Positions 23,934-62,459 of a DNA stretch of 64,000 bases are shown piece after piece. The stretch is from contig CM000152.2 in the NCBI GenBank assembly GCA_000004695.1, positions 4,544,001 through 4,608,000 of the forward strand, in the 5' to 3' direction. This DNA comes from Dictyostelium discoideum (Eukaryota). The notes beneath the pieces were generated by a model. That model did no database searches. It saw only the letters and a program-made list of their open reading frames with translations, and had not been told where the DNA came from. The position numbers and the translations under genes were made by a program. The stretch's first letter is position 1. Every line of letters starts with the position of its first letter.

Positions 23934-24006
23934 CACCCATTGTGGGTCTCGATCCCACGACCTGCAGCTTAGAAGGCTGCCGCAATTCCAACTTTGCTAA
24001 ACGGGC
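23934..24006 (-). tRNA. tRNA-Arg (anticodon UCU), 73 nt
   Basis: The reverse complement is GCCCGTT-TA-GCAA-AGTTGGAA-TTGC-G-GCAGC-CTTCTAA-GCTGC-AGGTC-GTGGG-ATCGAGA-CCCAC-AATGGGT-G. All four stems pair, with two G-U wobble pairs in the acceptor stem. The anticodon loop is CTTCTAA. Confidence 0.8.
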
Positions 24007-24052
24007 TTTGATATTTTTTCATTTTTAATATCTTTAATAACTACTTATTTGA

Positions 24053-25316
24053 GAGTAAGAGAAAAAACATCAACAACAACACTTTTTTTATTTGATTATT
24101 TCATTTTTCATATAAAAAAAAGACTTAAAAAAAATAAAATAAAATACACTTAGAGTAAACTACTTTATTTCTTTATTTTATTGTAATTTATTTTTTTCTT
24201 TTTTTTGAAAATTTTGCGAAGCAAAATTGAAAAAAAAAAGGAAAAAATAATCAGTAAGAGAAAAAACATCAACAACAACACTTTTTTTATTTGATTATTT
24301 CATTTTTCATATAAAAAAAAGACTTAAAAAAAATAAAATAAAATACACTTAGAGTAAACTACTTTATTTCTTTATTTTATTGTAATTTATTTTTTTCTTT
24401 TTTTTGAAAATTTTGCGAAGCAAAATTGAAAAAAAAAAGGAAAAAATAATCAGTAAGAGAAAAATCATCAACAACAACACTTTTTTTATTTGATTATTTC
24501 ATTTTTCAGATAAAAAAAAGACTTAAAAAAAATAAAATAAAATACACTTAGAGTAAACTACTTTATTTCTTTATTTTAGTGTAATTTATTTTTTTCTTTT
24601 TTTTGAAAATTTTGCGAAGCAAAATTGAAAAAAAAAAGGAAAAAATAATCAGTAAGAGAAAAAACATCAACAACAACACTTTTTTTATTTGATTATTTCA
24701 TTTTTCATATAAAAAAAAGACTTAAAAAAAATAAAATAAAATACACTTAGAGTAAACTACTTTATTTCTTTATTTTATTGTAATTTATTTTTTTCTTTTT
24801 TTTGAAAATTTTGCGAAGCAAAATTGAAAAAAAAAAGGAAAAAATAATCAGTAAGAGAAAAAACATCAACAACAACACTTTTTTTATTTGATTATTTCAT
24901 TTTTCATATAAAAAAAAGACTTAAAAAAAATAAAATAAAATACACTTAGAGTAAACTACTTTATTTCTTTATTTTATTGTAATTTATTTTTTTCTTTTTT
25001 TTGAAAATTTTGCGAAGCAAAATTGAAAAAAAAAAGGAAAAAATAATCAGTAAGAGAAAAAACATCAACAACAACACTTTTTTTATTTGATTATTTCATT
25101 TTTCATATAAAAAAAAGACTTAAAAAAAATAAAATAAAATACACTTAGAGTAAACTACTTTATTTCTTTATTTTATTGTAATTTATTTTTTTCTTTTTTT
25201 TGAAAATTTTGCGAAGCAAAATTGAAAAAAAAAGGAAAAAATAATCAGTAAGAGAAAAAACATCAACAACAACACTTTTTTTATTTGATTATTTCATTTT
25301 TCATATAAAAAAAAGA

Positions 25317-25380
<64 letters not shown>
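24053..25380. repeat. Tandem satellite: 7 copies of a roughly 195-201 bp unit (last copy truncated), terminating in an A60 tract
   Basis: The unit core (agtaagagaaaaaacatcaacaacaac...ttgattatttcatttttcatataaaaaaaagac...gaaaattttgcgaagcaaaattgaaaaaaaaaaggaaaaaataatc) recurs with starts near 24053, 24253, 24454, 24650, 24849, 25047 and 25243. Copies differ by a few substitutions. Confidence 0.9.
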
Positions 25381-25383
<3 letters not shown>

Positions 25384-25659
25384 CCGAAAACATTCTTTCA
25401 GGGAATTTCCAGAATTTTAAATTTTTAAAGCCGAATAAAGATTTTAAAGAAAAAAAAAAGAAATGAATAAATTGGCAAATACAATAATGACAGTGTTAGA
25501 GACTCAAAACTAAATTAATTTAAAGTTAGTATGAGCTCAACAACGTAACAAATTCGCGCATCTCCATGTAAAAATATTTCATTTAATTTTTATTTTTATT
25601 TTTTAATTTTTTAATTTTTTATTTTTTCAGTCAAAAAATAAAAAATTAAATTAAAAAAA

Positions 25660-26418
25660 CACAGCAAAGAAAAATGCACCTTTAAAGCAAATTTAAAGAA
25701 AAGTTGATTTAAATTGGATTTAAATTGAATTTAAAGCCGCGTTTAAAAAATTCATTTTTAAGGTAATTTTTAAGGTAATTTTTAAGATATTTAAAAATGC
25801 CTTTAAAATTTGCTTTAAAATAAATTTTTAAGCAATTTTAAAGGTGATTTTAAAGGTGATTTTAAAGGTGATTTTTAAGGTAATTTTTAAGATAATTTTT
25901 AAGATATTTAAAAATACCTTTAAAATTTATTTTAAATTAATTTTAAATAGGATTTAAAGTAGATTAAAAGTAGATTTAAAGTGAATTTAAATTTCCTTTA
26001 AACATAAATTTAAGGTTTTTAATAAAAAAGATCTAATTTTAGCACAAAAAAATGGGGATAAAATATTCTATCATTTTTAAATTTTTCATCAAAGCAATCA
26101 AATGGTGTAATGGTTGTTGAGACTCCCCTTTGATAGAGGGTCGGCGGATCGAATCCCTTTTGGGTAATTTTTGAAAAATTAAAAAAAAATTTTAAAAAAT
26201 TTATCCGTTAAATAACGGATTCGAACTCAGGACCTCGCTTTTAAAGCCATTAAAAAGGTAATTTTAAAGGTAATTTTAAAGGTAATTTTTAAGGTGATTT
26301 TAAAGTAACCTTAAAAATTACCTTTAAAATTACCTTTAAAATTGCTTTAATTCAGGACTTTAAAGCAAATTTAAATTTAATTTAAAGCGAATTTAAAGGT
26401 GGTTTTTTCTTTGCTGTG
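25660..26418. mobile_element. 759-bp terminal-inverted-repeat element (non-autonomous DNA transposon-like), copy 1, nested inside the Skipper 5' LTR
   Basis: - Perfect 15-bp terminal inverted repeats: CACAGCAAAGAAAAA ... TTTTTCTTTGCTGTG.
- No ORF.
- Interior is built from short direct repeats (GGTAATTTTTAAG / GGTGATTTTAAAG / TTTAAAG).
- Central A-box-like (TGGTGTAATGG) and B-box-like (GGATCGAATCC; GAGTTCGAATCCG) tRNA-derived motifs.
- The LTR sequence resumes exactly after the insertion, by comparison with the intact 3' LTR. Confidence 0.75.
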
Positions 26419-26954
26419 AAATTAAATTAAATTAAAATTTAAAAAAATAATAAAAATTCTGATTTTTCGGTTTAGTTGGAATAACGCCCTTACTTTTAAT
26501 TATCTCTTTTATGTATGTTTACTTTTATGATATTAGTCTTTCACTCTTTCTATCCTTCATATTAAAAAACATTACTTTAAAGATTGGACTGTTTGATAAA
26601 AGATTGAACAAATGTGACAATGGATTGAAGATTAGTGTGAGTGACTTTTACACTTTTTTTTTTCTAATTTTAACATAAAACAAATACATTAAAACAAATA
26701 ATTAGATACAATCCTTATATTTCGTATACAATGACACCTCATGATGAAGAAGTCGACTCTTCAGATTAGAGGAATAACAGTAGTATTTAAAACAAAATAA
26801 AAATGCATTACAATGGCCCTTCTGTTTGCAAGATTAACGCTGTACTGCTTAGGCGGTACAACGACACTTCCTACTCACATTGTAAACATGCATCTTTTAT
26901 AAAGTAATATAAAACAAGATTGTATCAATTAATTTAATAATAATGCTCAAATAC

Positions 26955-27230
26955 AAAGACACCACAATATAAATTATTAGTGGAATAACAGTTAAACAAA
27001 GACACCACAATATAAATTATTAGTGGAATAACAGTTAAATAAAGACACCACAATATAAATTATTAGTGGAATAACAGTTAAATAAAGACACCACAATATA
27101 AATTATTAGTGGAATAACAGTTATATTGATGCATTGTTATAATTAAAATAATTTAAGATAATATTTATTATCAATTAAATAATATAAAGACACCACAATA
27201 AAAATATATTAGTGGAATAACAGTTAACAT
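26955..27230 (+). repeat. Tandem 41-bp repeats (5 adjacent copies plus one diverged copy) in the 5' untranslated leader of the Skipper-like element
   Basis: The unit aaagacaccacaatataaattattagtggaataacagttaa recurs head-to-tail from about 26955 to 27165. A further copy lies at 27187..27230. Confidence 0.85.
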
Positions 27231-27378
27231 ATATTAATACTTATATTTAATTATTTAATTAAAAATTAAATTAAATTAAATTAAATAAATTAAATTAAAT
27301 TATATAATTAAATTATGTAAATTAAATTAAAAAATTAAATTATAAAATTAAATTATATTTAATAAATTTTATATATAA

Positions 27379-28542
27379 TTGTTGGTGAAAGTCATGTCAT
27401 CAACTACTACTCCTTCAAAGAAAGCCATCCGTAAAGCCAAAGTGTCTTCCACCGCCAAACGTGCCGCTGAAGTGACAACCGCCTCCGATGATGCTATTAC
27501 TGTTCAAGTAAAATCAAAAAAGACTCTTCGTCCCACTGAAGTTGATGATGAAATTTATTCAACTGAAAGCACTGATGTATCCGACGTCGAAGTCAGAGAG
27601 AAAGTGCCAAAGAAATCAAAGACCAATTCCATTGAAGCTAAAACCATTGACGCTTTAAAAAATGCTGCCACTGCTGTCATCTTCATGAATCTCTTTACCA
27701 TCCACTGCTCCCAGAATGGTGTTGAACCAACCTTGAAGACCATTATGGACAATGGTGCTGCATCAAATGAATTATTTCAATTGCTTCAACCTACCCACAA
27801 TGAATCAGTTAAGAACAACGATAAAATTGAAGGTGAAACATTGAAGAAGCTAATCCACCGTAACTTTAGATCCAAGACTTTGGTTCCATTCAAAACTGAC
27901 TACGAAGCTGCCAACACTAAAGTAGTCGAAGCTATTAACCATCGTAACTGCTACTCAGCCCAAGATGTTATAAAAAACATCGAAGCCATTATGAGTTACC
28001 ACAATGTAATTAATCCGGTGTATCTCATCCATGGTACTGCTGAAGTTCAATTAGAGTATCTAAGATCAATTTTAGATAATAATATCCTTGCTTTGTTAAA
28101 GATGGTCGTACCAGACTGGTTACAAACTGATGTTGCAATCAAACTCAACACTCAAACCGATATCACCGAGTGTCGTGAAGCCATCACCGAGTTGGTTCTT
28201 AACAATGCTGATAAGTTCTCGAGAAGAAGACCTTCCGATTCCGCATCGAATACTGATGAGAAGTTTCCATTAAAAAAGAATCATGCTACTCCAAATCATA
28301 ACTCTCATAACAGGAATTCCTTTGATGCTCAAGCTGATAAGATTAGAGCTGCAATATTACCCGAAATAAGAAAAGACTCTAAGGTAGACCTCAAAAAGAT
28401 AAGAAGCAGTTTCATCGTTTACCGTCAAAGCAAAGGCTACTGTCTCAATTGTGGTAAATCAAATCACTCCACATCTACATGTAGAATTGATCCGGTCGAT
28501 GCCAAAGCCAATCCAGGTCCATCAGCCAAAAAGCAACAATGA
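27379..28542 (+). CDS. Skipper-like Gag (387 aa) with a C-terminal CCHC zinc knuckle
   Basis: The motif CLNCGKSNHSTSTC (CX2CX4HX4C) lies near the C-terminus. The ORF ends in TGA at 28540..28542. Codon usage is less AT-biased than host genes. Confidence 0.85.
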   Translation: MLVKVMSSTTTPSKKAIRKAKVSSTAKRAAEVTTASDDAITVQVKSKKTLRPTEVDDEIYSTESTDVSDVEVREKVPKKSKTNSIEAKTIDALKNAATAVIFMNLFTIHCSQNGVEPTLKTIMDNGAASNELFQLLQPTHNESVKNNDKIEGETLKKLIHRNFRSKTLVPFKTDYEAANTKVVEAINHRNCYSAQDVIKNIEAIMSYHNVINPVYLIHGTAEVQLEYLRSILDNNILALLKMVVPDWLQTDVAIKLNTQTDITECREAITELVLNNADKFSRRRPSDSASNTDEKFPLKKNHATPNHNSHNRNSFDAQADKIRAAILPEIRKDSKVDLKKIRSSFIVYRQSKGYCLNCGKSNHSTSTCRIDPVDAKANPGPSAKKQQ

Positions 28543-31500
28543 CTCGATGAAGGTGATGAGTCCAAGTCAAAGATTTTAAATAAAAATTATAAAATTTCTC
28601 AATATCATCACCTTGAGGATAATGATTACCCAGTGAACAAAGATTCACTTTATACTCTTAACTCTTTTTATAATCAAAACATTGTTAAACAGTTACATCA
28701 ACAAAGCCAGCAACATGATGTTCATAAAAACATCAACAAACTTAAAGAATACGTCAAAGACTCATATGGTATAAAACTAGTTCCTGATACAACCGTTCCA
28801 ATTCCAAAAGCTGTTGAATCAGAGATGAAGTATAAACCACAGAAGATTGAATTTAATACTCCAACAGAGTTAACAAATGTTCAAGATAAAAACTATACTG
28901 TAAACATATTCAATCGTCCAAAGATATTAAATTCTAGTAAAGAATTAATTAACGATGAAGAAGATGAATTGCTTTACACAATTAAATTCGATAAAGAAAC
29001 AAACAAACCAATCATCTCATTATTACATAGTACTGGTACAAGTGATACTGCTCTCATTCCGACTCTCAAATGTTTAATCGTTCCAAACAGAGAAAACATG
29101 GATAAACCCAAGATTATAATTAACTCTCATTCCAAAGAAAAACAATTCAAATTAATTCTCGATACTGGAAGTAATGTTAGTTTAATCAATAAGAGGTTGA
29201 TTTCAAAAGATATGAAGAACCACGTTCACAAAACGAAAGCCAAGATTAACTTCCCGCTACTAGACGTCAAAGAAGAGTTTGTTGAACAAATCAATATACA
29301 AGTTAACAATGAAATTCATAACTTCTTTATTATAGAATTGGATATCATTGATGTACTTTTCGGTAATGATATCCTTAAGGACTCTATCATTAACCAAAAA
29401 GATAAAATAATCAAGTTGAATAATAGTACATACAAAATTAATTATCAACAGTCGAATCAATTACATTGTAATGTAAAAGCTCCAAGAAAACATGTTACCG
29501 TATCCAATGATAATCAGTCACAGTCACATAATCTACTAGATGATGATGAAGATATCAAAGAACAAGTTACAAAGTTTGTTGAAAGCATCCCATCACAACT
29601 TTGTGATATACTGGTTAAAACTAATCCAGAAGAAGAAGAGATACAAGCAGTACGTGATTTCATTAATGATTCATTCGAAGATGTTATAGTAGATAAACTT
29701 CCTGATATTCCAGATCAGATTAACAATTCCAGAAGAGGTAATATCATACATAATATCATAATAAAGAAAGATCAAGATGTTGAACCAACAAAGAAACAAA
29801 TCTATTATTCAACAGATGATCATAAGAGACATGTCGAAGAAATGGTTCTCAAATTTATAGATTTAGGTATTATCAAAAGATCAGAATCAAATTACTCATC
29901 TCCAATCATGTTATTAAAGAAGAGAGATTCATGGCGTGTAGTCCACGACTATCGTCAACTAAATAAAGTCACTGTTAGAGACGATCATCCATTCACTCCG
30001 GTTGATAGTCTTTTAAATCAATGTAAAGATTCAAAGCTTTTCTCAAAGTTTGACATGATTATGGGTTATTTCCAAGTGTTAATTAATCCAGAACACGCAA
30101 AGTACACCGCTTTCATTACACATATTGGTAAATTTGAATATACTAGAATGCCACAAGGTTTAGTCAACTCTCCATCCACATTCGCCAGATTGATGGTCGA
30201 AATATTTGGAAAAATCAAAAGTTTATTACAATACTTTGATGATCTTTTGGTTCATTCAAAACTCGACTACATGGTACATTTCATTGAAATCATTAGAATG
30301 CTTCTATATTGTAGAAAGTACCTATTATTCATTTCAAGAGAAAAGAGTGAAATGTTAAAGACTGAAGTTGATTTCCTTGGTTTTCACATTCATAAAGATG
30401 GTATATCTCCAAGAGCTGCAAAGGTTAGAGCTATCTCTGAGTTACCTGAACCAAGAAACGCCAAAGAAGCTGAAGCTGCATTAGGTCTTTTTGGATTCTT
30501 CAGGAGACACATTGAAAATTACGCTGAAAAAACCTATCACCTTTCCAAAGAATCAAAAGGAAAAAACAAGAAAACACTTTCTGATGAATCACTCAAAGAA
30601 TTCAATAATCTAAAGAAAGAGTTTGAAGGTGAAAATATTGTCGCTATTCCAATTGAACAAGATAACTCCATACCAATAGATATCGAAAAGGTTAAAGCAT
30701 CAACAGACATGCCAATCCATTCAGATAATAATAATCTAAACAATGGTAGTTTTCACTTGTATTGTGATGTTAGTGATAAAGCATTATCAGGTGTATTATA
30801 TCAAATTCAAGGTAATAAATTCAAAGTCATTTGGTTTCACAGTAGAAAACTTACTGATACTCAAAAGAGGTACAGCATAGGTGATAGAGAGTTCCTTTCA
30901 ATCATTGATTCTCTAAAGAAGTTTCAACATTTATTAATTGGTAAAAAGGTTTCAATCTACACTGATCACCAAAATCTTACATATATTATCAATAAGTCAA
31001 ACGATAAACCGTTCACAAAGAGACAAGATAATTATATGAAATATATTAAAGAATTTGATTATGAATTAAGACATATAAGTGGTAAAAAGAATGGTATAGC
31101 TGATTTTTTATCTCGTAAATATGATAATTTCCAATGGGATGAATCGTTTTTAAATAAAATTAAGGAAGAACAAATCAATTCTCAATGGCTATTAGAGATG
31201 AAAAAGAATCCAAATTTATGCATTGAAGAAATTAATGATATCTGTTACCTTAGTGAAGATGGGTTCAAGAAATTAATCATCATAGATAAAGAAACTATTC
31301 ATACCGTCATTAGAGAATATCACGATACCAAATATAGTGGTCATCACGCTTTAGATATCACATACAATAATATAAGACAAGATTACTATTTCAAAGAAAT
31401 GTTTTCTATTATCAAGAGGTACATAAAGTCTTGTGCAACATGTCAATTGAACATTAACCGTAAAGATAATGGTATACTCCAAAGTTTAGAAATTCCCTTT

Positions 31501-32826
31501 GAAGTTTGGAGAGATATATCAATCGATTTCTTATCGCTACCAAAAACAATGTATGCAATAAACGGATTTACAGTTGAAGTCGATCAAGTTTGTGTCATTG
31601 TTTGTAGATTATCTAAAATGGTTCATATAGTTCCATGTCATAAGACAATAGATGCCCAACATACCGTTCAATTATTGTTGAATCATGTGTTCAGACTCCA
31701 TGGTTATCCAAGAACAATCGTCTCCGATAGAGATCCAAGATTCCTTTCAGAAATATGGGAGAGATGGGCAAAGACGATGGATTCTAAACTCAAGATGACT
31801 GTGGCACACAGAGCACAAGCTGATGGTCAAACTGAAAGAATGAATAGAGAAATTATTAGAATATTAACTAAAGCCTCAACAGAGTATGGGGAGAATTGGT
31901 CAGATATCATTCCACTTATTGAATTTGCAATGAACTCATCAATGAGCAAGTCTACAAAGATGTCACCATTCCAAATCGTTTATGGATTCAATCCACCAAC
32001 TCCCGTTAATCATTTCAATTCATTAACAAAGACTCGTATACCAATGAGCAACATCAAAAAGATTGTCCGTGATAATATACTAGATGCTCAAATCAATGCT
32101 CAAAAGTATTACAACCGAGGTCGTGGTGATGTTATCTTCGTAGTCGGAGAAAAGGTGATGGTTAAAAGAAAATTCTTCCAAACTAATCTTTCAAAAGATC
32201 TAATCTCTCACAAACTTGAATCCAAGAATTGTGGACCATTCATAATCACTGCCGTTCATGGTAATAATGTAACACTCGATTTAGTAGGTTATCCAAAGAA
32301 ACACAATGTGTTCAACAAAGATCAAATCGTAAAACTATACGAGGACAGTGAGTGGTTAAGAGAAGAGATATCGATGCCGGAACCTGAGGAGATGGACGAA
32401 GCAAGTTACGAAGTTGAAAGTATTCTCAATCACGATAAAGTCAAAAAGATGTACCTAGTGAAGTTCAAAGGTTACCCAGAACCTGAATGGATCAAAGAAG
32501 TCGATACAGACTGTGAAGAGTTAGTCAGAGAGTATTGGAATAACGTGCAGAAGAAACAATTGAACTCAAGAAGAGAAAGAGAGAATGTAACTACAGAAGC
32601 CGTTGAGCCAATTGTGTCACCTCCACTCTCCCAAGAAGTTCAAAGTTCTCAAACATTGCAACCAATTACTCCAAGACAACAAAACTCCATCTCAAATCAA
32701 AGAAACCAATCAAAGAAAAGAAAATCAAGAAATCAAAATACTTCAAGTGATGATGATGAACTTGATCTTAGTTTACAAATTAAAACAACTAGATCAGGAA
32801 GAAAAGTTACACCCAAGAGTTTATAG
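28543..32826 (+). CDS. Skipper-like Pol polyprotein (PR-RT-RNaseH-IN-chromodomain), in the same frame as gag directly after its UGA. Has no ATG of its own (the ORF track start at 28633 is GTG)
   Basis: - Protease LILDTGSNVSL.
- RT motif LQYFDDLLVHS.
- Integrase zinc finger HHALD...CATCQ.
- DDE core (DFLSLP...VDQVCVIVCRLSKMVHIVPCHK...).
- Chromodomain YEVESILNHDKVKKMYLVKFKGYPEPEWIKEVD.
- The frame is open from 28543 onward. Confidence 0.85.
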   Translation, partial: LDEGDESKSKILNKNYKISQYHHLEDNDYPVNKDSLYTLNSFYNQNIVKQLHQQSQQHDVHKNINKLKEYVKDSYGIKLVPDTTVPIPKAVESEMKYKPQKIEFNTPTELTNVQDKNYTVNIFNRPKILNSSKELINDEEDELLYTIKFDKETNKPIISLLHSTGTSDTALIPTLKCLIVPNRENMDKPKIIINSHSKEKQFKLILDTGSNVSLINKRLISKDMKNHVHKTKAKINFPLLDVKEEFVEQINIQVNNEIHNFFIIELDIIDVLFGNDILKDSIINQKDKIIKLNNSTYKINYQQSNQLHCNVKAPRKHVTVSNDNQSQSHNLLDDDEDIKEQVTKFVESIPSQLCDILVKTNPEEEEIQAVRDFINDSFEDVIVDKLPDIPDQINNSRRGNIIHNIIIKKDQDVEPTKKQIYYSTDDHKRHVEEMVLKFIDLGIIKRSESNYSSPIMLLKKRDSWRVVHDYRQLNKVTVRDDHPFTPVDSLLNQCKDSKLFSKFDMIMGYFQVLINPEHAKYTAFITHIGKFEYTRMPQGLVNSPSTFARLMVEIFGKIKSLLQYFDDLLVHSKLDYMVHFIEIIRMLLYCRKYLLFISREKSEMLKTEVDFLGFHIHKDGISPRAAKVRAISELPEPRNAKEAEAALGLFGFFRRHIENYAEKTYHLSKESKGKNKKTLSDESLKEFNNLKKEFEGENIVAIPIEQDNSIPIDIEKVKASTDMPIHSDNNNLNNGSFHLYCDVSDKALSGVLYQIQGNKFKVIWFHSRKLTDTQKRYSIGDREFLSIIDSLKKFQHLLIGKKVSIYTDHQNLTYIINKSNDKPFTKRQDNYMKYIKEFDYELRHISGKKNGIADFLSRKYDNFQWDESFLNKIKEEQINSQWLLEMKKNPNLCIEEINDICYLSEDGFKKLIIIDKETIHTVIREYHDTKYSGHHALDITYNNIRQDYYFKEMFSIIKRYIKSCATCQLNINRKDNGILQSLEIPFEVWRDISIDFLSLPKTMYAINGFTVEVDQVCVIVCRLSKMVHIVPCHKTIDAQHTVQLLLNHVFRLHGYPRTIVSDRDPRFLSEIWERWAKTMDSKLKMTVAHRAQADGQTERMNREIIRILTKASTEYGENWSDIIPLIEFAMNSSMSKSTKMSPFQIVYGFNPPTPVNHFNSLTKTRIPMSNIKKIVRDNILDAQINAQKYYNRGRGDVIFVVGEKVMVKRKFFQTNLSKDLISHKLESKNCGPFIITAVHGNNVTLDLVGYPKKHNVFNKDQIVKLYEDSEWLREEISMPEPEEMDEASYEVESILNHDKVKKMYLVKFKGYPEPEWIKEVDTDCEELVREYWNNVQKKQLNSRRERENVTTEAVEPIVSPPLSQEVQSSQTLQPITPRQQNSISNQRNQSKKRKSRNQNTSSDDDELDLSLQIKTTRSGRKVTPKSL

Positions 32827-33302
32827 TCCACCTCTGAGCCATAGCTAGCCTAAAGAAGGAAGGGGAAGGTGTTAGAGACTCAAAACTAAATTAATTTAAA
32901 GTTAGTATGAGCTCAACAACGTAACAAATTCGCGCATCTCCATGTAAAAATATTTCATTTAATTTTTATTTTTATTTTTTAATTTTTTAATTTTTTATTT
33001 TTTCAGTCAAAAAATAAAAAATTAAATTAAAAAAAATTAAATTAAATTAAAATTTAAAAAAATAATAAAAATTCTGATTTTTCGGTTTAGTTGGAATAAC
33101 GCCCTTACTTTTAATTATCTCTTTTATGTATGTTTACTTTTATGATATTAGTCTTTCACTCTTTCTATCCTTCATATTAAAAAACATTACTTTAAAGATT
33201 GGACTGTTTGATAAAAGATTGAACAAATGTGACAATGGATTGAAGATTAGTGTGAGTGACTTTTACAGACAGAATCAACAGAAACATTGGCAGATAAAAT
33301 CA

Positions 33303-34060
33303 CACAGCAAAGAAAAATGCACCTTTAAAGCAAATTTAAAGAAAAGTTGATTTAAATTGGATTTAAATTGAATTTAAAGCCGCGTTTAAAAAATTCATTT
33401 TTAAGGTAATTTTTAAGGTAATTTTTAAGATATTTAAAAATGCCTTTAAAATTTGCTTTAAAATAATTTTTTAAGCAATTTTAAAGGTGATTTTAAAGGT
33501 GATTTTAAAGGTGATTTTTAAGGTAATTTTTAAGATAATTTTTAAGATATTTAAAAATACCTTTAAAATTTATTTTAAATTAATTTTAAATAGGATTTAA
33601 AGTAGATTTAAAGTAGATTTAAAGTGAATTTAAATTTCCTTTAAACATAAATTTAAGGTTTTTAATAAAAAAGATCTAATTTTAGAACAAAAAAATGGGG
33701 ATAAAATATTCTATCATTTTTAAATTTTCATCAAAGCAATCAAATGGTGTAATGGTTGATGAGACTACCCTTTAATAGAGGGTCGGGGGATCGAATCCCT
33801 TTTGGTAATTTTTGAAAAATTAAAAAAAAAAATTTTAAAAAATTTATCCGTTAAATAACGGCTTCGAACTCAGGACCTCGCTTTTAAAGCGATTAAAAAG
33901 GTAATTTTAAAGGTAATTTTAAAGGTAATTTTTAAGGTGATTTTAAAGTAACCTTAAAAATTACCTTTAAAATTACCTTTAAAATTGCTTTAATTCAGGA
34001 CTTTAAAGCAAATTTAAATTTAATTTAAAGCGAATTTAAAGGTGGTTTTTTCTTCGCTGT
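33303..34060. mobile_element. 759-bp terminal-inverted-repeat element, copy 2 (about 97% identical to copy 1). Lies 35 bp downstream of the Skipper 3' LTR and abuts a non-LTR retroelement fragment
   Basis: Same termini (CACAGCAAAGAAAAATGCACCTTTAAAG ... AAAGGTGGTTTTTTCTTCGCTGTG) and same internal organisation as copy 1. It differs by scattered substitutions and indels. Confidence 0.75.
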
Positions 34061-34730
34061 GATGACATAAAGAAACTGGAGAACGTTAATGCCAACATGT
34101 TATTCAAAGGGGACAGGTGGGCTATCTCAAAAGAAAGGAGCAGAAGAGACTATGAAATTGGAGGCCTGGAACTCTGGAATAGGGACTTAGCATGGAGATA
34201 TCTACTCAAGGCACTTCCAAAACACCATGGGGAGAATTGCCACTCATGTAAAGAAGAAGAATCGTCTATGCACATCTTCTTCGAATGCAAATCAATAAAA
34301 CAGAATATCGACTCAATCTATCAAAAGGTCTGTAAAGACTCCAACAACACTTACCACGGTCCATGGAGCGAAAAAGTTCTCGGAAAACTACTCACACCAT
34401 TCTCATCAAATCTGATAGGAGCCATTATGGAATCGATATGGTACAGAAGAAATCAAATAAAATTCAACGATAACACTACAATAATAACAGAGAACCAAAT
34501 AATTCATAAAATCAAAAAAGCGAGAGATGCCGAATGGGATAGAACAAGAAAGATAGTAGAAAAACAACTACGTCAAGAACTAAGATGCACTGATAACCGA
34601 GAGTCAATCAATCGGACCGCATCAATAAAAAGAAGACTCGAAAAATTCAGCCACAACTGGAACTCGAAACTCATGACCATAAACATCCCGGAACACTTCA
34701 TACCATACTGCTCATATAACACCAACTACT

Positions 34731-34764
<34 letters not shown>

Positions 34765-34856
34765 ATAACAATAATAATAATAATAATAATAATATAATAA
34801 TATAATAATAATAATATAATAATAATAATAATAATAATAAAAATAAGAATAACAAG

Positions 34857-34904
<48 letters not shown>

Positions 34905-34920
34905 AAACTCTCCTAGAACA
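34061..34920 (+). mobile_element. 5'-truncated non-LTR (TRE/LINE-like) retrotransposon 3' end: ORF2 C-terminal portion (34097..34735), then a poly(A)/(AAT)n tail
   Basis: The ORF has comparatively GC-rich codon usage (gggacaggtgggctatctc...) like Dictyostelium retroelements. It has a Cys/His-rich C-terminal region (HHGENCHSCK...HIFFECKS...). It ends in A27 followed by (AATAAT)n and A35. The 5' boundary is the TIR element end at 34060. Confidence 0.5.
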
Positions 34921-35211
34921 CACTCAAATTGAGTGATGTTATTAAAAAAAAAAAAAACTACTTATTTGAAAATATTTAAATATTTAAAAATAAAAGATTA
35001 ATTATAAAATATTAAGATAAATTAAAATAAAAAATATAAATTACAATAACTTGTGTACAAATACTCATTACGTTAGTCCACTTTCGTTACAGGCTAATTA
35101 AACCAATAATTATGTGCATAAAATACTTTTCAATAAGTACCAAAAAGAATCTTAATACAAAGGACCTTTTGAAAAATGTTTTTTTATTGTTTATTTTTTT
35201 AAAAATTTAAT

Positions 35212-39539: not shown

Positions 39540-40991
39540 CATCATTAAAATCACTATTATTATTTAAAACATTACTATTATTATCATCATTATTATTATT
39601 ATTATTTAATTTACTGAAATATAAAACATCATTATCTTGATCAGTTTGAAGTACTTCAATTGCAGAAGCAACATCTTGATTATTTGCAAAGTGTTGATTA
39701 GAGTGAATTTTACATAAGATTTCAGCAGTAACTAATCTAACATTTGGTACTGGATCGTGAACCAATTTTAATAGAGTTGGTAAAAAGGTTTGTTCAAAGT
39801 AAATTGGATCTAATTGCTCAACGAGATAACCACAAATCTTTGTAAAAACCTGTCTATTTGAAAATGAAATATCAGTTCCTAAACATTGAATACTTTCAAT
39901 GGTAGAATTCTTTAATTGATTAATTTCTTCTAATGTTAATTCTGCTTCAGCTGTATTTGTTCCATTGCTGCTGCTGTTGCTACTATTATTACTATTATTT
40001 ACATCTGTATTTGTTCCATTGCTGCTGCTGTTATTACCGCTATAATTAACTTCACTATTTAAAATCTTTAAAATTAAATGACCAACGCTAGAAGCGGCAT
40101 ATGATCTAACCTTTGCAACAGAGTCATTTAATAAAGTAATTAAAATTGGTGTTAATTGAGTTAAATTTGTCTTTAAATTAAATAAGTCGCACATTTCTCC
40201 AATTTGTCTAAAAATAAAAATAAAAAAATAAATTAATATTATTCTATTATTGATGGTGGTGGTGGTTTATGTGTAGTTTTAAAAAAAAAATACAAACTTT
40301 GAAATTAATTTTCTAAATCTCCATTTACTTGGATCATTAACAAAACTATGAATGATTAATATGTAAGATTCTCTTTGAGCAGGTTCTAATGAAGCAAGGA
40401 AACCAGAGAAATGTCTAACAACACCAACTCTAACTTCATCTAAATCTTGTAAGAATAAATTGAAACATTGTACCAATGATGCTTTAGTTTCAGCTGGTCC
40501 TAAAATCTTTGCAATCTCATGAATTGAATGAGATAAAGTTCTTCTTACTTTCCACTTTAAAGAGTAATAATAATAAAAAAAAATAAAAAAAAAGGTAAGT
40601 ATTTGTATATTAAAAAAAGTTATTATTATTAAAAAGTTTTAATTAAAAAAAAGAGTAATAATATACAAACATTTGTATCTTTAACTAAAGTTAAATAAGT
40701 TTCTTTTAATTCAGGCCATCTTGAACTACCAACAGTGTATAATACAGCAGGGAAATTAAAAGCACAATGAGTAACCAAATCACTATCAGGGAATCTAATA
40801 GTTGATGGATTGATCATATTGGTATAGAGATTTAATAATTTTGGGGTAATTTGAGAACCTTCAAATGTTGCAATGAATGGTCCTAAATTTTGAAATGCTG
40901 TATTATTTACCCATCTTGATGACTATTATATATATATAATTAATATAAAATATATTAATATAAATATAAATATTTATTTTTACTACCAATA

Positions 40992-42436: not shown

Positions 42437-42991
42437 TTTATTATTACTTTTATTACTATTATTTTCCTTTAATAATAATATGATAATAAAAATGGTCTGT
42501 TGTGTGTTAGAAAAAAAAATTTGAAAAAAAAAGAAAAAAAAAAAAAAAATTCAATTTTTTTTTTTTTTTTTATTTTTTTTTTTTATATTTTATTTTTTAC
42601 TTTTCTTTTTTGATGGCCATGCAAGATCTTTTTTTTTTTTTCCTTTTTTTATTTTTTTTTGGGGTATTGGTTTTATTTTTTTTTTTTGAGTGGTGTCAAA
42701 TTTGAATGTCTTTTTTTTAATTTGTTTTGCATTAAAAATAGTTAAGAAAAAAAAAAGAATGTTACTAGTAACTTTAAAAGATAATTTTTTTAAAAAAAAA
42801 AATATGAATAGATATTTTCTAAGACCCATGGACTAAGGGCAGATATAGATAATTTCGAACACTAATTTTCTATTTCCAATTTTTTTTATTTATTTTTTTT
42901 TATTTTAATCTTTTTTTTTATTTCTTTTTTTTTTTATTTTTTTTTTTTTTATTTTTTATTTTTTTTTTTGAATATATTTAATTTGAGATGA

Positions 42992-45900
42992 TTAACGATT
43001 GAGCCATCTAACTTTTTTGAAACCCCAGAAACTTAAACCAACAAAAATGAAAATGTAACCAAAGATAGCAGCAATATCGATATATCTCATGAATTTATGG
43101 AAACCATAAGTTAACATGAAATCATCACCATTTGTAATTGGACAATAATATTTAATCGCTATTTGAACACCATTTTCAATGATTGGAATTGGTACAGCAC
43201 CTTTATTATTTGTACAAACAAATGTTAAACCTGTGAATTCATTGGTACAAGATGCTTCCAAAGGATACCTGAGCCAGTCTAAATAATGACACCAATAATA
43301 TGCAGATGGATAATTTGGTCTTGCAATGACGAAACCACCAAATAATGTTGCCAATGATAAACCAATACCACATATTGTTGATGCCATAACTTCATTTGGT
43401 AAGCAAACCGCCAGACATAATGCAAACGCATCATACATAATATAGGTGATAATGAAAATGAATAGACAATACCAAAATTTAGATGAATGTCGACCGGAAT
43501 CCAGACCAGCAATCCAAAATGTTGGAATAATATAAAGAATACCAGTTGATAGAATAAATGGATACGATGTTAATACATATGATATCATATATGCCGTTGA
43601 ATGATAGAAACCTGCGGTAACTTCACGATAGAATACACCTCTTTCTAATACTGTTGTTGGAATATTACCAATTGCGACCATACCGGCAAAAAGGAACGAA
43701 AAGAAGAGTAATGAAACACGAGATCTTGCATCCTTTTGTTCATAGTCCATACGAACAAATAGTGTACCTAATAGGACTGCCAACAATATTGAACGAAGAC
43801 AATTTGAAACGAATATTGCTGGACGCCTCAACCGAGATAACCAACTTCTCATACAAAGTGCGCGGAATTGTGTCATCCATGATGAAGCAAACCTTGAATC
43901 ATACGTTTTAACTACAAAGTCATCAGGTATTAATTGTCCTTCCATAATTTCATATTCTTTTTTACAAATATTAGATTCAAAATATGCCTTCTTTGCATCA
44001 AGATGTTCTTGTTCACCATTTGGACCTTCAACCATTTTACCTTCATCAGCTAATGTCATTACGAAATCAGCAGGATTAATATGTGGTTTAATATGCATAC
44101 CTAATTTATCACAATAATCTAAAATCACACTTGACTGATTACCCAATGGCCCAAAATAAATTGTTTCACCACCTTTTTTTAGTAATAATAATTGGTCAAA
44201 GAATTCGAAAATTGCAGCAGATGGTTGATGTACTGTACAAATTACAGTTCTATTCATTACTTTGGCAATTTTATTAACTACATCAATTACTTTAAATGCG
44301 TCACCAGAGTCTAAACCACTTGTTGGTTCATCAAGGAAAAGAATTTCTGGATTTGAAGCTAATTCAACACCAATATTTACTCTTTTTCTTTGCGATACTG
44401 ATAAACCATTTCCAAGTACACCAATCTTTAAATCTTTAATACTTGATAGACTTAAAACTTCAACGATCTTATCAACAAAGATCTCTCTTTCTTCTTTAGT
44501 AACTTCAGGTGGTAGTCTACATCTTGCACTGAATGCAATCGCTTCTCTAACTGTTTGTGTTGGTGGTAAAACATCCATTTGTTCAACATATGCTCTTATT
44601 CTATTTGTAAATTCAGAAGGTGGTTTACCATTAATTAAAATTTCACCAGTGATATGGCCACCAGTTTTTCTTTGAGCTAAAACATCTAATAATGTTGATT
44701 TACCTGCACCTGATGGTCCCATTAATGCTAACATCTATAATAAAAAAATAAAATTAATAATTAGTAATAAATAAATTAAACAAAAGAATATTTTTAAAAA
44801 ACATACTTGACCAGGTTTAACATAACCATCAATATCAGTTAATAGTTGTAATCTTTGACTTTTCTTTTTCTTTGGATTGTCTGGATCATCAGCTTTTACA
44901 TCAACAGCATAACAAAGTTTTTTAAATTGTAAATAACTACCAGTTTCTGAACTTATATCTTTTTGAGAGGTACTTATTGGTTTTTGTTTTGAATGATTAC
45001 CATTTTTTGAAGGAGTATTAACCATTGGTGATAAATTTGTTAATGGGGAATTAACCATTGGTGATAGAGTCGAAGGTGTTTTAACTTTTCTTCTTTTTAT
45101 ATTATTACCGGATCCTGATAAATTATTATTATTATTGTAATTGGGAGATGTTAATGGTGATTTCATATCAATTACAGTATCATCGTCATAGTTTGAAATA
45201 TCAGCATTATCATCATTATCATCACTAACTCTTTCTAATGCTTCAGTAGTAACTTTACAATTTGGCTCTTCATCTTCTTTACAAACAATAACTTTTTTCT
45301 TTTTCTTTAATTTCTTTACTGCTAATTTGGATTTTTTATCTTCAAAATTTAAATATTTCAAAGCAAAGAAACAAACTGAATAAAAGAATACAATATAAGC
45401 ACCTAAAATTGCATAAACAATCCATTTGAAATAATCTGGGTTATTAATACCAAATGCATCCATAATTTGTTCACCAGATGTATATTGACAAACTTGATTA
45501 CCACCGAAACCTTCTGGATATGGTAATAGATTTTGAGGAGTTCTTGGTGGTATTAATTCAGAATCTTTACAACCATACGCTTGATATGTAAATTCATTAA
45601 TTGATAAACCTTGGAAAATCCATGTATAGGGTGATATATAATATAACCAAATCCACCAACCTCCAATATCATTCTTTGGTGCCGTGAAACCTGAAAATAA
45701 TAACCAAATTGAAAGTATTACTGATGCTGTTACATTTGCAATTTCAATTGTTGGTGAAATTGCTGCACACATTTTAGCAAATGATAATGATAAATTATCA
45801 GTTCTAAAAAAAAAAAAAAAAAATTAGGATTTATAAAAATAAATACTTGAATAAATTAATTAAAATAAAAATACATACATAAATAATAAAATCATAAAAT

Positions 45901-46532
45901 AAACAAACCTAATGAAAACTGGCCTAAGATTTGCTAGCCAATAAACAATTGGACCAAAGAATGCGACTTCAATTAAACCAGCGGGAATATCACAAATGAT
46001 ACTTGAAATAAAGTATGCACCAGTTTTATAATAATGTAATGCTTTTTGAGAATAAAATACTTTTCTTTCACCAAAGAATGAATTAACAGCGGCAAATGAA
46101 GAGAAAATAATTGTTGTCATAATAAAGAATAAAAGACCAAATCTTTCCATACCACCACTTTGATTATGACCAATTCTCCAATAGAGTGTACCTAATAATA
46201 ATCCAAAGAAAATTCCTTTAAAAACACGAGTTGCAAAATTATAATAATTTCTACTAATCATAATGAAACCCCTCTTTAAACAAATTTTAGTTTGATAACC
46301 AATACCATGTGGATACATTCCTAATTCTTTAGCTGTACTATCTACTAAGACTTTTGGTTTATTATCATCAACAATACCATCTTTATTTGCATCCATCTTT
46401 TCCATTAATTCAAGATAAATATCTGATTCTCTATATGCTTTAACAAAATCATCACTAGTTTTACATTTTGGTGGATGAATAAATGAATATCTTTCTGGTG
46501 CATCTACAACTTCCTCTATTTTACATTTTTTT

Positions 46533-46566
<34 letters not shown>

Positions 46567-47572
46567 ATTAAAATTTAAAATTAAATGTTATTAAAACTTA
46601 CGAAAGAATTCAGCAGGATTATTATGAGATGGACATGCAAAACCTAATTTTTTAAAATAGCCTAATGCTCTATTCATTGGACCAAAATAACAAATTTTAC
46701 CTTTACTCATAATCATTAAATTATCAAATAATGAAGTTAATTGAACACTTGGTTGTAGTAAAGTGATGAGTGCAGGTGAATAACCATATGTTACAAACTT
46801 TTTAACATCACTTAAAATTTCGAAACTTGTTGAAGAATCTAAACCTGATGTTGGTTCATCCATTAATAATAGATTACTACCTTTAATAACACCAACACCA
46901 ATTGTAACTCTTTTCTTTTGACCACCTGATATACCTCTAATGAAATTATCACCAACCAATGTATTTTCTGCATGTTTTAAACCTAATAGTTTCATACAAT
47001 TATCAACGCTTACTTGTTTTTCTTCACGGGTGAGTTCTTTTTTACCTAAACAATCCAATGCGAATCTAAATGTTTCTTTTACAGTTAATGTCGGTACATG
47101 AATATCATCTTGAGTTACATATGAAATATCACGATGGTGATTTTTATGATTGATTGGATGACCATTAAATAATAATTCACCTTCAAAATGTTTATCTTTT
47201 AATTGACCTGCTAACATTTGGAAAATGGTTGATTTACCACAACCAGGAGTACCTAAAATTAATGTCATTTGTTTTGGTCTTAAAAAAAATGAAACATCAT
47301 CTAATAATTTAATTTTAACTTTTTTATTTTCTCTATGTTTTACTGTATATGTTGCATTTCTACAATAAACATATAAACCTGTTTTATCCTCTGGTCTAGT
47401 TTGTTTAATCTTTTTTGTTAATTCATCATTTTCATGATTTGGCATTAATTCATCTAATGGAATTGGGAAATATTCATCATCTTCTTCTCCTTCATGCTCT
47501 TTTGCAATTTGATAAATACTATCTTCAAAATCATTTTCTTCATCTTTATGTTTTATATTATTATTATTATTG

Positions 47573-47652
<80 letters not shown>

Positions 47653-47754
47653 GTTATTATTATTATTATTTAGGGTTGGTTCTTCTTGATTATTTATTGG
47701 TATTGATAGATTCGGAGAATATGAAGATTTATCTCTTGGATCTTGTTTTACCAT
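42992..47754 (-). CDS. Full-size ABCG (PDR/WBC-type) transporter, copy 1. Domain order NBD-TMD-NBD-TMD; 4 exons (about 46591..47754, 45860..46530, 44735..45786, 42992..44734)
   Basis: - NBD1: Walker A GTPGCGKST, signature ISGGQKKRVT, Walker B LLLMDEPTSGLDS.
- NBD2: GPSGAGKST, LSVSQRKRVN, ILFLDEPTSGLDS.
- Two six-helix TMD regions.
- Introns carry GTAAGT/GTTTGT donors.
- N-terminal poly-Asn. Confidence 0.85.
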
Positions 47755-48383: not shown

Positions 48384-48821
48384 GGAGAGACCTTTTTTTT
48401 TTTATTTTTTAATTTTTTTTTTAATTTAAAATAATGATTTGGTTTATTTAAATTATTATGAATTTAGATAGATAAATAGAGCACTATAAAATACACAAAA
48501 TTTTATAAAATATAAGAAAAATGAATGTCATCATTCTGGTTTTTTTTTTCTTTTTAACCAAAAAAATGTTTATTTTTTTAAAAATTTAAGTTTTATAATA
48601 AATTTATTTATATATATTTTGAAAAATTATTTATTATATTAAATAAATATTCTAATTTTTTTTTTTAAAAAAGTGAGAACACTTCTTTTATAAATAATTT
48701 AATAATCAACCCTTAATTTTTTGACAAATATTAAAAGATTATTACTTTTTTTTTTTTAATTATTTTTTTTTATTTTTTATTTTTCTTTTTTATTTTTTGA
48801 ATATATTTAATTTTGAGATGA

Positions 48822-50565
48822 TTAACGATTGAACCATCTAATTTTTTTGAAACCCCAGAAACTTAAACCAACAAAAATGAAAATGTAACCAAAGATAGCA
48901 GCAATATCAATATATCTCATGAATTTATGGAAACCATATGTTAACATGAAATCATCACCATTTGTAATTGGACAATAATATTTAATCGCTATTTGAACAC
49001 CATTTTCAATGATTGGAATTGGTACAGCACCTTTATTATTTGTACAAACAAATGTTAAACCTGTGAATTCATTGGTACAAGATGCTTCCAAAGGATACCT
49101 GAGCCAGTCTAAATAATGACACCAATAATATGCAGATGGATAATTTGGTCTTGCAATGACGAAACCACCAAATAATGTTGAGAGTGATAAACCAATACCA
49201 CATATTGTTGATGCCATAACTTCATTTGGTAAGCAAACCGCCAGACATAAACCAAACGCATCATACATAACATAGGTGATAATGAAAATGAATAGACAAT
49301 ACCAAAATTTAGATGAATGTCGACCAGAATCCAGACCAGCAATCCAAAATGTTGGAATAATATAAAGAATACCAGTGGATAAAGTAAATGGATATGATGT
49401 TAATACATATGATGTCATATATGCCGTTGAATGATAGAAACCTGCAGTGACCTCACGATAGAATACACCTCTTTCTAATACTGTTGTTGGAATATTACCA
49501 ATTGCGACCATACCGGCAAAAAGGAACGAAAAGAAGAGTAATGAAACACGAGATCTTGCATCCTTTTGTTCATAATCCATACGAACAAATAGTGTACCTA
49601 ATAGGACTGCCAACAAAATTGATCGTATACAATTTGAAACGAATATTGCTGGACGCCTCAACCGAGATAACCAACTTCTCATACAAAGCGCACGGAATTG
49701 TGTCATCCATGATGAAGCAAACCTTGAATCATACGTTTTAATTACAAAGTCATCAGGTATTAATTGTCCTTCCATAATTTCATATTCTTTTTTACAAATA
49801 TCAGATTCAAAATACGCCTTCTTTGCATCTAGGGGTACTTGTTCACCATTTGGACCTTCAACCATTTTACCTTGGTCAGCTAATGTCATTACGAAATCAG
49901 CAGGATTAATATGTGGTTTAATATGCATACCTAATTTATCACAATAATCTAAAATCACACTTGACTGATTACCCAATGGCCCAAAATAAATAGTTTCACC
50001 ACCTTGTTTTAGTAATAATAATTGGTCAAAGAATTCGAAAATTGCAGCAGATGGTTGATGTACTGTACAAATTACAGTTCTATTCATTACTTTGGCAATT
50101 TTATTAACTACATCAATTACTTTAAATGCGTCACCAGAGTCTAAACCACTTGTTGGTTCATCAAGGAAAAGAATTTCTGGATTTGAAGCTAATTCAACAC
50201 CAATATTTACTCTTTTTCTTTGCGATACTGATAAACCATCACCAAGTACACCAATCTTTAAATCTTTAATACTTGATAAACTTAAAACTTCAACGATCTT
50301 ATCAACATAGCTCTCTCTTTCTTCTTTAGTAACTTCAGGTGGTAGTCTACATCTTGCACTGAATGCAATCGCTTCTCTAACTGTTTGTGTTGGTGGTAAA
50401 ACATCCATTTGTTCAACATATGCTCTTATTCTATTTGTAAATTCAGAAGGTGGTTTACCATTAATTAAAATTTCACCAGTGATATGGCCACCAGTTTTTC
50501 TTTGAGCTAAAACATCTAATAATGTTGATTTACCTGCACCTGATGGTCCCATTAATGCTAACATC

Positions 50566-50597
<32 letters not shown>

Positions 50598-53500: not shown

Positions 53501-53668
53501 TTCATCATTTTCATGATTTGGCATTAATTCATCTAATGGAATTGGGAAATATTCATCATCACCATCATCTTCACCCTCATGCTCTTTTGCAATTTGATAT
53601 ACACTCTTTTCATCATCACTATCATAATTACTTTCTTCATCCTTATGTTTTCTACTACTACTAATTAA

Positions 53669-53755
<87 letters not shown>

Positions 53756-53860
53756 TAATAGTTCTTGATCATTATCTAAATTTTCATTATTATTATTATT
53801 TATAGGTATTGATAAATTGGGAGAATCTGAATTTTTATCTTTTGGATCCTGTTTTGCCAT
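48822..53860 (-). CDS. Full-size ABCG transporter, copy 2, tandem paralogue of copy 1 with the same exon structure
   Basis: - Same motifs as copy 1.
- The 3' exon (48822..50564) is about 97% identical at the protein level to 42992..44734, and even the spurious antisense ORFs are conserved.
- 3' flanks are near-identical.
- The N-terminal and linker low-complexity regions are diverged.
- The first 75 residues of tracked ORF 50558..51853 are intronic repeat translation, not coding. Confidence 0.85.
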
Positions 53861-62290: not shown

Positions 62291-62373
62291 GCAAGGGTAG
62301 GAAAGTCTGGTTAAATCCGTGTGACTTAAGATCTCATCCATTCGGTTCGCGAGTTCGAATCTCGCCTCTTGCA
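62291..62373 (+). tRNA. tRNA-Leu (anticodon UAA), type II with long variable arm, 83 nt
   Basis: Acceptor GCAAGGG/CTCTTGC with discriminator A. Anticodon loop CTTAAGA is identical to eukaryotic Leu-UAA, although the anticodon stem has one T:T mismatch. The 12-nt variable arm and T arm GCGAG-TTCGAAT-CTCGC are present. Ex-B box GTTCGAATC at 62407..62415. Confidence 0.6.
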
Positions 62374-62459
62374 AGCTTTTCCCAATCCTCAAATATGTGT
62401 TCGTATGTTCGAATCTTGTTTTGTCCATTTAACGATTGATCAATATTATATAGATTTTT

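Follow-up and report, generated by a model that had tools for sequence, protein, structure and literature searches.

The TRE5 non-LTR retrotransposons of Dictyostelium discoideum target sites about 50 bp upstream of tRNA genes, and their sequences contain A-C modules and modular UTRs (PMC5633606). B-box attraction of such elements is established as a concept because isolated B boxes, as at rDNA palindrome sites, can attract TRE5-A, as cited in PMC5633606. Skipper-1, another retroelement, has two ORFs and a chromodomain (PMC5633606). Small DNA-transposon families of this organism, namely thug, DDT and Tdd, were catalogued by Glockner et al. 2001, as cited in the same paper, and thug-S carries a multicopy miRNA hairpin, AUUAAUUUCGGCAGCCAUAUU / UAUGGCUGCUGAAAUUAAUGUGG (PMC4894637).

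At the locus described here, transposons are nested in one another next to a D. discoideum AX4 tRNA gene, an ordinary arrangement of a kind already described. It was analyzed within a stretch of 64,000 nucleotides, hereafter the window, which has a G+C content of 24% and whose proteins match D. discoideum alone. A near-identical strain (assembly GCA_054883475.1) shows an equal structure at this locus, with 99.6% identity across 21.7 kb. Its elements and the tRNA gene beside them are as follows.

23934-24006, minus strand: tRNA-Arg(TCT) gene with a GGATCGA-type B box (ARAGORN; Rfam 59 bits).
24039-24052: left copy of the target-site duplication (TSD), AACTACTTATTTGA, exact match.
24053-34955, plus strand: TRE5-type non-LTR retrotransposon, host of the nested insertions (14-bp TSD, repeats, matches elsewhere).
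25494-33267, plus strand: Skipper-1-like Ty3/gypsy LTR retrotransposon (LTRs, TSD, RT, RNase H, integrase).
25660-26418, plus strand: copy 1 of a 759-bp non-coding TIR element (right LTR as empty site, alignment).
33303-34061, plus strand: copy 2 of the same 759-bp element, a non-coding MITE-like TIR DNA transposon (TIR search, alignment to copy 1, TRE flanks).
34956-34969: right copy of the TSD, AACTACTTATTTGA, exact match, directly after the A-tail.

The interval 24053-34955 represents a single TRE5-type insertion that was targeted to tRNA-Arg(TCT), because the exact 14-bp TSD pairs the 3′ fragment with the A-module 5′ end. Between its start at 24053 and the 5′ end of the tRNA gene at 24006 there are 46 bp of upstream sequence, and the two are arranged head to head. 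From left to right, the element comprises 5′ repeats (24054-25337), organized as 6.5 tandem units of 199 bp, a poly(A)/5′ UTR segment that extends to 25462, and ORF1 codons 1-20 (MNKLANTIMTESTETLADKI), which are split between 25463-25493 and 33273-33302. These are followed, beyond copy 2, by the ORF2 C-terminus (34062-34735), whose frame is open from about 34062-34064, and by an A-rich 3′ UTR and A-tail that end at 34955. A TRE5 ORF2 is expected to have APE, RT and zinc-finger domains; what remains of it here is the C-terminal 224 aa, with a weak zf-RVT match (E=0.0074), and related copies carry RVT_1. A non-LTR fragment had originally been placed beside copy 2 at 34061-34920, and its adjacency was confirmed, with its limits now corrected to 34062-34955.

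This TRE family was found at four other loci, all of which share the terminus ..CTCCTAGAACACAC[T/C]CAAATTG[A/G]GTGATGTTATT(A)n. Two of these copies (L004 and L001) begin 48 bp upstream of tRNA-Lys and tRNA-Ile, also head to head, and the family has this position at other tRNA genes as well. In L003 and L004, the same 5′ repeat and the same 3′ end occur on a single element, and TSDs of 10-14 bp flank the copies in L001, L003 and L004, for which both ends are mapped. The host element resembles TRE5 (TRE5-A and its relatives) in its position 46-48 bp upstream of a tRNA gene in head-to-head orientation, as well as in its 10-14-bp TSD, modular 5′ repeats, putative zinc-binding motif at the ORF2 C-terminus, and A-tail. 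It departs from the TRE5 norm by its 6.5 tandem 5′ units, by the loss of about 3.7 kb from its interior and by two nested insertions. A 539-aa protein neighboring the locus had no scored homologues.

The Skipper-1-like element has TG..CA ends and is flanked by the TSD GACAG (25489-93 and 33268-72). Its LTRs are 398 bp long and 100% identical apart from the copy 1 insertion. The gag ORF (27394-28542) is 100% identical to AX4 DDB_G0281533, annotated as 'Gag', and the pol ORF (28633-32826) contains RT, RNase H and integrase domains, together with a chromodomain match (E=0.0012) that falls short of the Pfam cut-off. The element agrees with Skipper-1 in its identical LTRs, its 5-bp TSD, the separation of gag from pol, and this domain set, in which the chromodomain is weak.

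When the Skipper-1-like element and one GACAG are excised, 25381-25493 is joined to 33273-33302, giving 143 nt of 5′ UTR and ORF1 codons 1-20 that are 99% identical to L007 and L008 as far as the junction with copy 2. Copy 2 is bordered on its left by the TRE at ORF1 codon 20/21 and on its right by the ORF2 C-terminus, and each border matches uninterrupted copies of the TRE at other loci with 99% identity. At the left junction, intact TRE reads ..gataaaatca followed by AGAAATC, and in the window copy 2 begins at that break. At the right junction, L008 reads ..CAACGAAATAA followed by atgacataaag, and in the window it is copy 2 that precedes atgacataaag. Because both flanks match contiguous TRE sequence, copy 2 lies inside the TRE, at a deletion. 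The TRE sequence absent exactly at copy 2 amounts to approximately 3.7 kb and extends from ORF1 codon 21 into the ORF2 C-terminus; this size is the distance between the two points in L008 (10.7 kb) minus L008's own Skipper (about 7 kb).

Copy 2 is flanked by CA and AT, with no target-site duplication. Because this coincides with the 3.7-kb deletion, the deletion may have arisen either as a transposon-associated adjacent deletion or by recombination between two former TRE-borne copies. No intermediate allele for the deletion was seen, the structure in GCA_054883475.1 being equal. TRE5-A.2, a form without ORF2 sequence (PMC5633606), was considered as the cause of the missing TRE and was rejected: the deletion starts at ORF1 codon 21 and coincides with copy 2.

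Copy 1 is located within the left Skipper LTR, and the right LTR (32870-33267) represents its exact empty site. The empty LTR has eight A's versus seven A's, the element and three A's in the filled site, which corresponds to a 2-bp AA duplication. The locus was built in four steps. The TRE5-type element integrated 46-48 bp upstream of tRNA-Arg(TCT) and generated a 14-bp TSD. Copy 2 then came to lie inside that TRE, where its position is clear and where it would have arrived by one of the two routes given above. The Skipper-1-like element inserted 30 bp to the left of copy 2, at ORF1 codon 10/11, with the TSD GACAG, and copy 1 inserted last, into the left Skipper LTR, with a 2-bp duplication. 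It is highly probable that the locus as a whole is a transposable-element nest beside a real tRNA gene, with no retroelement drawn in by the TIR element.

The TIR of the 759-bp element, CACAGCAAAGAAAAA, occurs at 25660 and 33303 on the plus strand and at 26418 and 34061 on the minus strand. It is perfect at three of the four element ends and has one mismatch at the 34061 end. Copy 2 had been predicted to span 33303-34060; the start was exact, and the true end is one base further, at 34061. The two copies align colinearly with 98% identity and 13 difference events, and neither has coding capacity (longest ORF ≤37 aa). TIRs, absence of coding capacity and multiple near-identical copies characterize the element as MITE-like. 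Both of its arms consist of arrayed TTTAAAG-type repeats of 11-12 bp, present in either orientation, which we infer to be transposase binding sites.

In the right arm of copy 2, inverted 12-bp subterminal repeats (I2/I4) form a near-perfect hairpin.

33898-33991, plus strand: near-perfect 41-bp hairpin in the right arm of copy 2.

This hairpin (dG -51 kcal/mol, z -11) had sub-threshold matches to MITE-type miRNA precursor models, and a strong internal hairpin is also a feature of MITE-derived small-RNA loci. Identity with thug-S was tested and rejected: neither of its miRNA sequences was present, at ≤3 mismatches, in the window, L003 or L010.

Two longer relatives of the element were detected. 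One of 2.0 kb (L003, 11105-13120) interrupts the ORF2 of a different TRE copy, where a TA dinucleotide stands on either side of it, and is without a long ORF. The other, of 3.9 kb (L010, 10905-14776), lies between two GT dinucleotides and has an ORF of 509-573 aa. Its first 29 nt are identical to those of the 759-bp form, the ends of the two are about 80% identical over 150-180 bp, and the 12-bp subterminal repeats are common to both. The family TSD is thus 2 bp at three independent insertions: AA (copy 1), TA (L003) and GT (L010). In about 200 kb of D. discoideum DNA (L001-L010), no further 759-bp copies were found, only longer relatives. Judged by its sequence, the 759-bp form is a MITE-like derivative of a family with longer coding members. 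Like other MITEs and non-autonomous TIR transposons with captured filler, it is short and non-coding, with perfect TIRs, subterminal repeat arrays, termini common with a longer coding relative, short TSDs and a habit of nesting in other repeats.

CMC (CACTA/Mirage/Chapaev) transposons are candidate kin of this family. A TIR that starts with CACAG and a 2-bp TSD are traits of the CMC superfamily, and the TIR family has both. The ORF of L010 belongs to a protein cluster with members of up to 852 aa, including an AX4 member, DDB_G0267352, of 813 aa, whose motifs look tnp2-like. Unlike CMC transposons, however, the coding relative had no match to Pfam tnp2 or any other transposase family at E≤1 (L010 ORF, P0072, P0073 and P0080), and no PDB relative of the L010-type protein cluster was detected. 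A single-sequence AlphaFold model of the coding relative had a pLDDT of 30. A search of the available literature found no description of this TIR family.

Each copy of the 759-bp element contains two tRNA-like segments, which are convergent: a pseudo-tRNA on the plus strand and a tRNA 3′ half on the minus strand.

26096-26166, plus strand: degenerate 71-nt pseudo-tRNA of copy 1 (ARAGORN -ps90; five differences from copy 2).
26204-26250, minus strand: tRNA 3′-half-like fragment of copy 1, with the B box AGTTCGAATCC (10 of 11 consensus positions).
33738-33808, plus strand: degenerate 71-nt pseudo-tRNA cloverleaf of copy 2 (Rfam tRNA model, ARAGORN -ps80, MFE structure).
33847-33893, minus strand: tRNA 3′-half-like fragment of copy 2, with the B-box-like AGTTCGAAGCC (alignment to tRNA-Pro/Asn).

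The pseudo-tRNA occupies positions 436-506 of the 759-bp element. In copy 2, an A-box-like TGGTGTAATGG (33745-55) and a B-box-like GGATCGAATCC (33788-98) are separated by 32 nt; in copy 1, the corresponding positions are 26103-13 and 26146-56. A T4 run follows at 33799-802 in copy 2, and the TTTT and TTTTT runs downstream of the boxes resemble a terminator in sequence. The arrangement expected of a tRNA gene, in which an A box and a B box at tRNA spacing are followed by a T run, appears to be preserved. The A box fits the consensus TRGYNNANNGG, and the B box fits 10 of 11 consensus positions. The boxes are well kept for a relic, both in the fit of the A box to its consensus and in their tRNA-like spacing. 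GGATCGAATCC is of the GGATCGA type, an A54 variant, and its T-to-A 'mismatch' is not disqualifying because the functional tRNA-Arg(TCT) gene has the same form. The 3′ half of the plus segment resembles tRNA-Lys(TTT), with GGTCGGGGG[A/T]TCGA..CCTTTGG in common.

On the minus strand, AGTTCGAATCC is found at 26217-27 (copy 1) and AGTTCGAAGCC at 33860-70 (copy 2). The order of parts in the minus half is an anticodon-arm-like hairpin, GGTC, and the 5′ strand and loop of the T arm, with a small hairpin and a T run beyond; the 3′ strand of the T stem is absent. GTCCTGAGTTCGA of this half matches tRNA-Pro and tRNA-Asn. The original prediction had quoted strings on the plus and minus strands of copy 1, with equivalents in copy 2, and had described the tRNA-like segments as no longer folding as tRNAs. 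All of the quoted strings are present, and the segments are indeed present in both copies at scores below the default thresholds of tRNA detectors.

The degree of decay is evident from the detector scores. Over its full length, the tRNA model of Rfam fits 33738-33808 with a score of 12.6 bits (E 5.4 for the search over 4227 families, or about 1e-3 for the tRNA family alone), compared with 49-64 bits for the three true tRNA genes in the window. The copy 1 pseudo-tRNA was not listed by this model at E≤10, and neither copy's segment passed default ARAGORN or the Rfam RF00005 gathering score (29 bits). ARAGORN draws a cloverleaf at relaxed thresholds only: copy 1 is called at 90%, whereas copy 2 requires 80%. 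At 90%, it made six calls in the 64-kb window, three of which are true tRNAs; at 80%, its false positives amount to about one per 3 kb (about 40 false calls per window). The MFE structure of the copy 2 plus segment is cloverleaf-like, and the folding energy of the tRNA-like segments is no better than that of shuffles.

The B-box motif GGTTCGAATCC (≤1 mismatch) occurs four times in the window versus 0.32 expected; three of the four matches are within copies 1 and 2, and the fourth is in tRNA-Gly. Local alignments were run against nine real D. discoideum tRNAs. In composition-matched shuffles, the alignment of the plus segment to tRNA-Lys was equaled by a fraction of 0.003-0.02, and that of the minus segment to tRNA-Pro or tRNA-Asn by a fraction of ≤0.007. 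The B-box excess, the ARAGORN calls at 90% and the alignments that beat shuffles argue that the core segments are real, decayed tRNA-derived sequence.

Like tRNA-derived SINEs, the 759-bp element has a tRNA-derived segment with A and B boxes, and a SINE was considered as its identity. Unlike in SINEs, the tRNA-like part is internal and not at the 5′ end, TIRs and 2-bp TSDs are present, and an A-rich 3′ tail is missing; for these reasons it is a DNA transposon rather than a pol III-driven retroposon, and the SINE was ruled out.

The core was found in the 759-bp form alone, and neither tRNA-like sequence nor a B-box match was present in the L003 and L010 relatives. Because these relatives have the same termini and 2-bp duplications and are without the core, the core is probably foreign filler captured from the host. 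One whole host tRNA gene and a convergent 3′ half may have been captured as filler and then decayed. The opportunity for such capture could have come from the nesting of the TIR family in elements beside tRNA genes. Eight of the 13 differences between the two copies are in the core, which makes up 24% of the length (binomial P=0.004, or 0.04 when weighted by G+C sites), and one of them abolishes the minus-strand B-box match in copy 2. This faster change of the core fits decay rather than constraint, at a significance that, in this comparison of two copies, is marginal after correction for the higher G+C content.

It is unlikely that the core instead functions as a pol III unit or as an extra-TFIIIC site, kept for the benefit of the element, for example through open chromatin or transcription, or incidentally making TRE landing pads elsewhere in the genome. 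The A box matching its consensus, the 10 of 11 B box positions at tRNA-like spacing, and the T4 and T5 runs after the cloverleaf are what such a unit would have, and the same GGATCGA variant is present in tRNA-Arg, a functional gene that has been the target of a TRE5. However, the 12.6-bit score is far from the range of real tRNA genes, the core diverges faster than the arms, including at the minus-strand B box, longer family members do without it, and there is no TRE at the predicted positions in either copy.

We regard as very unlikely the view that a patch richer in G+C looks like a tRNA by chance, with no tRNA-gene ancestry. The failure of default tRNA finders, the missing listing of copy 1 by the tRNA model, the folding energies equal to those of shuffles and the many false calls of ARAGORN at 80% are consistent with chance. 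On the other hand, three independent measures (B-box counts, tRNA-model alignment and shuffles) are above their controls, and an A box, an anticodon arm, a GGTC variable region, a T arm and an acceptor 3′ strand follow one another correctly and with proper spacing. Capture of host tRNA sequence, followed by decay, remains the preferred reading of the core.

The original prediction had also suggested that a mobile element with B boxes could seed TRE landing sites. At this locus, TFIIIC on the TIR-element B box would then have directed an independent, 5′-truncated TRE insertion beside copy 2. In favor of this, the tRNA-like half on the minus strand faces the TRE fragment on the plus strand head to head, which is also the orientation at real tRNA genes, and isolated B boxes can act on TRE5-A as cited above. 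The idea is nevertheless extremely improbable and is ruled out by TSD pairing: the partner of the 3′ TSD (34956-69) is found at 24039-52, about 10 kb away at the A-module 5′ end, and the junction with copy 2 has none. TRE sequence also borders copy 2 on its left, and no base is missing from the end of the TIR element. An independent insertion would be expected to have a TSD of its own at 34062 and to lie about 98 bp from the B box, as at tRNA-Arg, whereas the junction is 191 bp from it. Nothing interrupts either copy at the predicted positions, -48 and +100 relative to the pseudo-tRNA. The TIR element is contained in the very TRE that supplies the 3′ fragment, an outcome that the prediction itself had named as counting against it. 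What holds of that account is its description, with tRNA-derived A-box and B-box motifs at tRNA-like spacing adjoining a non-LTR fragment; the adjacency is explained by nesting and gives no hint of a landing site. There is no evidence at this locus for B-box attraction of TREs.

The 759-bp element is of a known type, in a genome that has been catalogued well, and the captured pseudo-tRNA pair inside it may be the sole unreported item. In addition, the nested cluster offers a worked example of an exact empty site for a TIR family with a 2-bp TSD, of a dated insertion order, and of a transposon-associated 3.7-kb deletion. It is quite improbable, even with a GGATCGA B box like that of the functional tRNA-Arg gene, that the pseudo-tRNA core binds TFIIIC or TFIIIB and that each new copy would add a pol III/TFIIIC site to the genome. 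If it did bind them, the core could serve as a fresh landing pad for TRE5, TRE3, DGLT-A or Skipper-2, or as a chromatin boundary. Were the boxes occupied by pol III factors, such mobile B boxes would bear on how tRNA-targeting retroelements find safe sites, and a DNA transposon would then redistribute the 'safe havens' of these retroelements in a compact genome.

The TRE5 subfamily represented in the window, a group of non-LTR retrotransposons, hosts nested Skipper-1-like elements (Ty3/gypsy LTR retrotransposons), which share the same gag protein, at three separate D. discoideum loci:

Window, 25494-33267: nested Skipper-1-like element
L007, about 10001: nested Skipper-1-like element
L008, about 10001: nested Skipper-1-like element

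The 5' end of the TRE5-type element in the window consists of 6.5 tandem copies of a 199-bp unit (24054-25337, 99% identity), and copies of this family elsewhere carried about one unit (L003) or 2.5 units (L004). A run of 60 A residues (25320-25380) was present downstream of the units in the window, and shorter A runs occupied the matching position in L003 and L004. Separately, the window holds a tandem segmental duplication whose two copies (42915-47754 and 48739-53860, 90-94% identity) each span about 5 kb.

Two longer relatives of the 759-bp non-coding TIR element were detected, both with TIRs beginning CACAG and 2-bp TSDs:

L010, 10905-14776: longer relative, TSD GT
L003, 11105-13120: longer relative, TSD TA

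The protein encoded by the L010 relative belongs to an orphan family whose AX4 member, DDB_G0267352, is 813 aa long; neither Pfam nor PDB yielded a relative of this family. The family's motifs, GHN..YACHTCD, DILHNILLGV and HLLLHYP..WGAP, are reminiscent of CACTA/tnp2 transposases.

tRNA-related features were also identified elsewhere in the window:

62291-62373: tRNA-Leu(TAA)
62406-62416: second B-box-like motif, TGTTCGAATCT, 33 nt downstream of tRNA-Leu(TAA)
1006-1080 and 39733-39812: two further weak tRNA-like segments (ARAGORN, 90% threshold)

The motif beyond tRNA-Leu(TAA) fits the 'ex-B box' arrangement known from Dictyostelium tRNA genes. The two weak segments may be spurious calls or the remains of further tRNA genes.

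Finally, the right arm of the TIR element contains a near-perfect 41-bp hairpin (dG -51 kcal/mol, z -11), for which models of MITE-type miRNA precursors, mir-548 among them, gave hits below threshold:

33898-33991: hairpin, copy 2
About 26255-26348: equivalent, copy 1

In D. discoideum, thug-S repeats have been reported as a miRNA source (PMC4894637). If transcribed, the right-arm hairpin would be a Dicer substrate.
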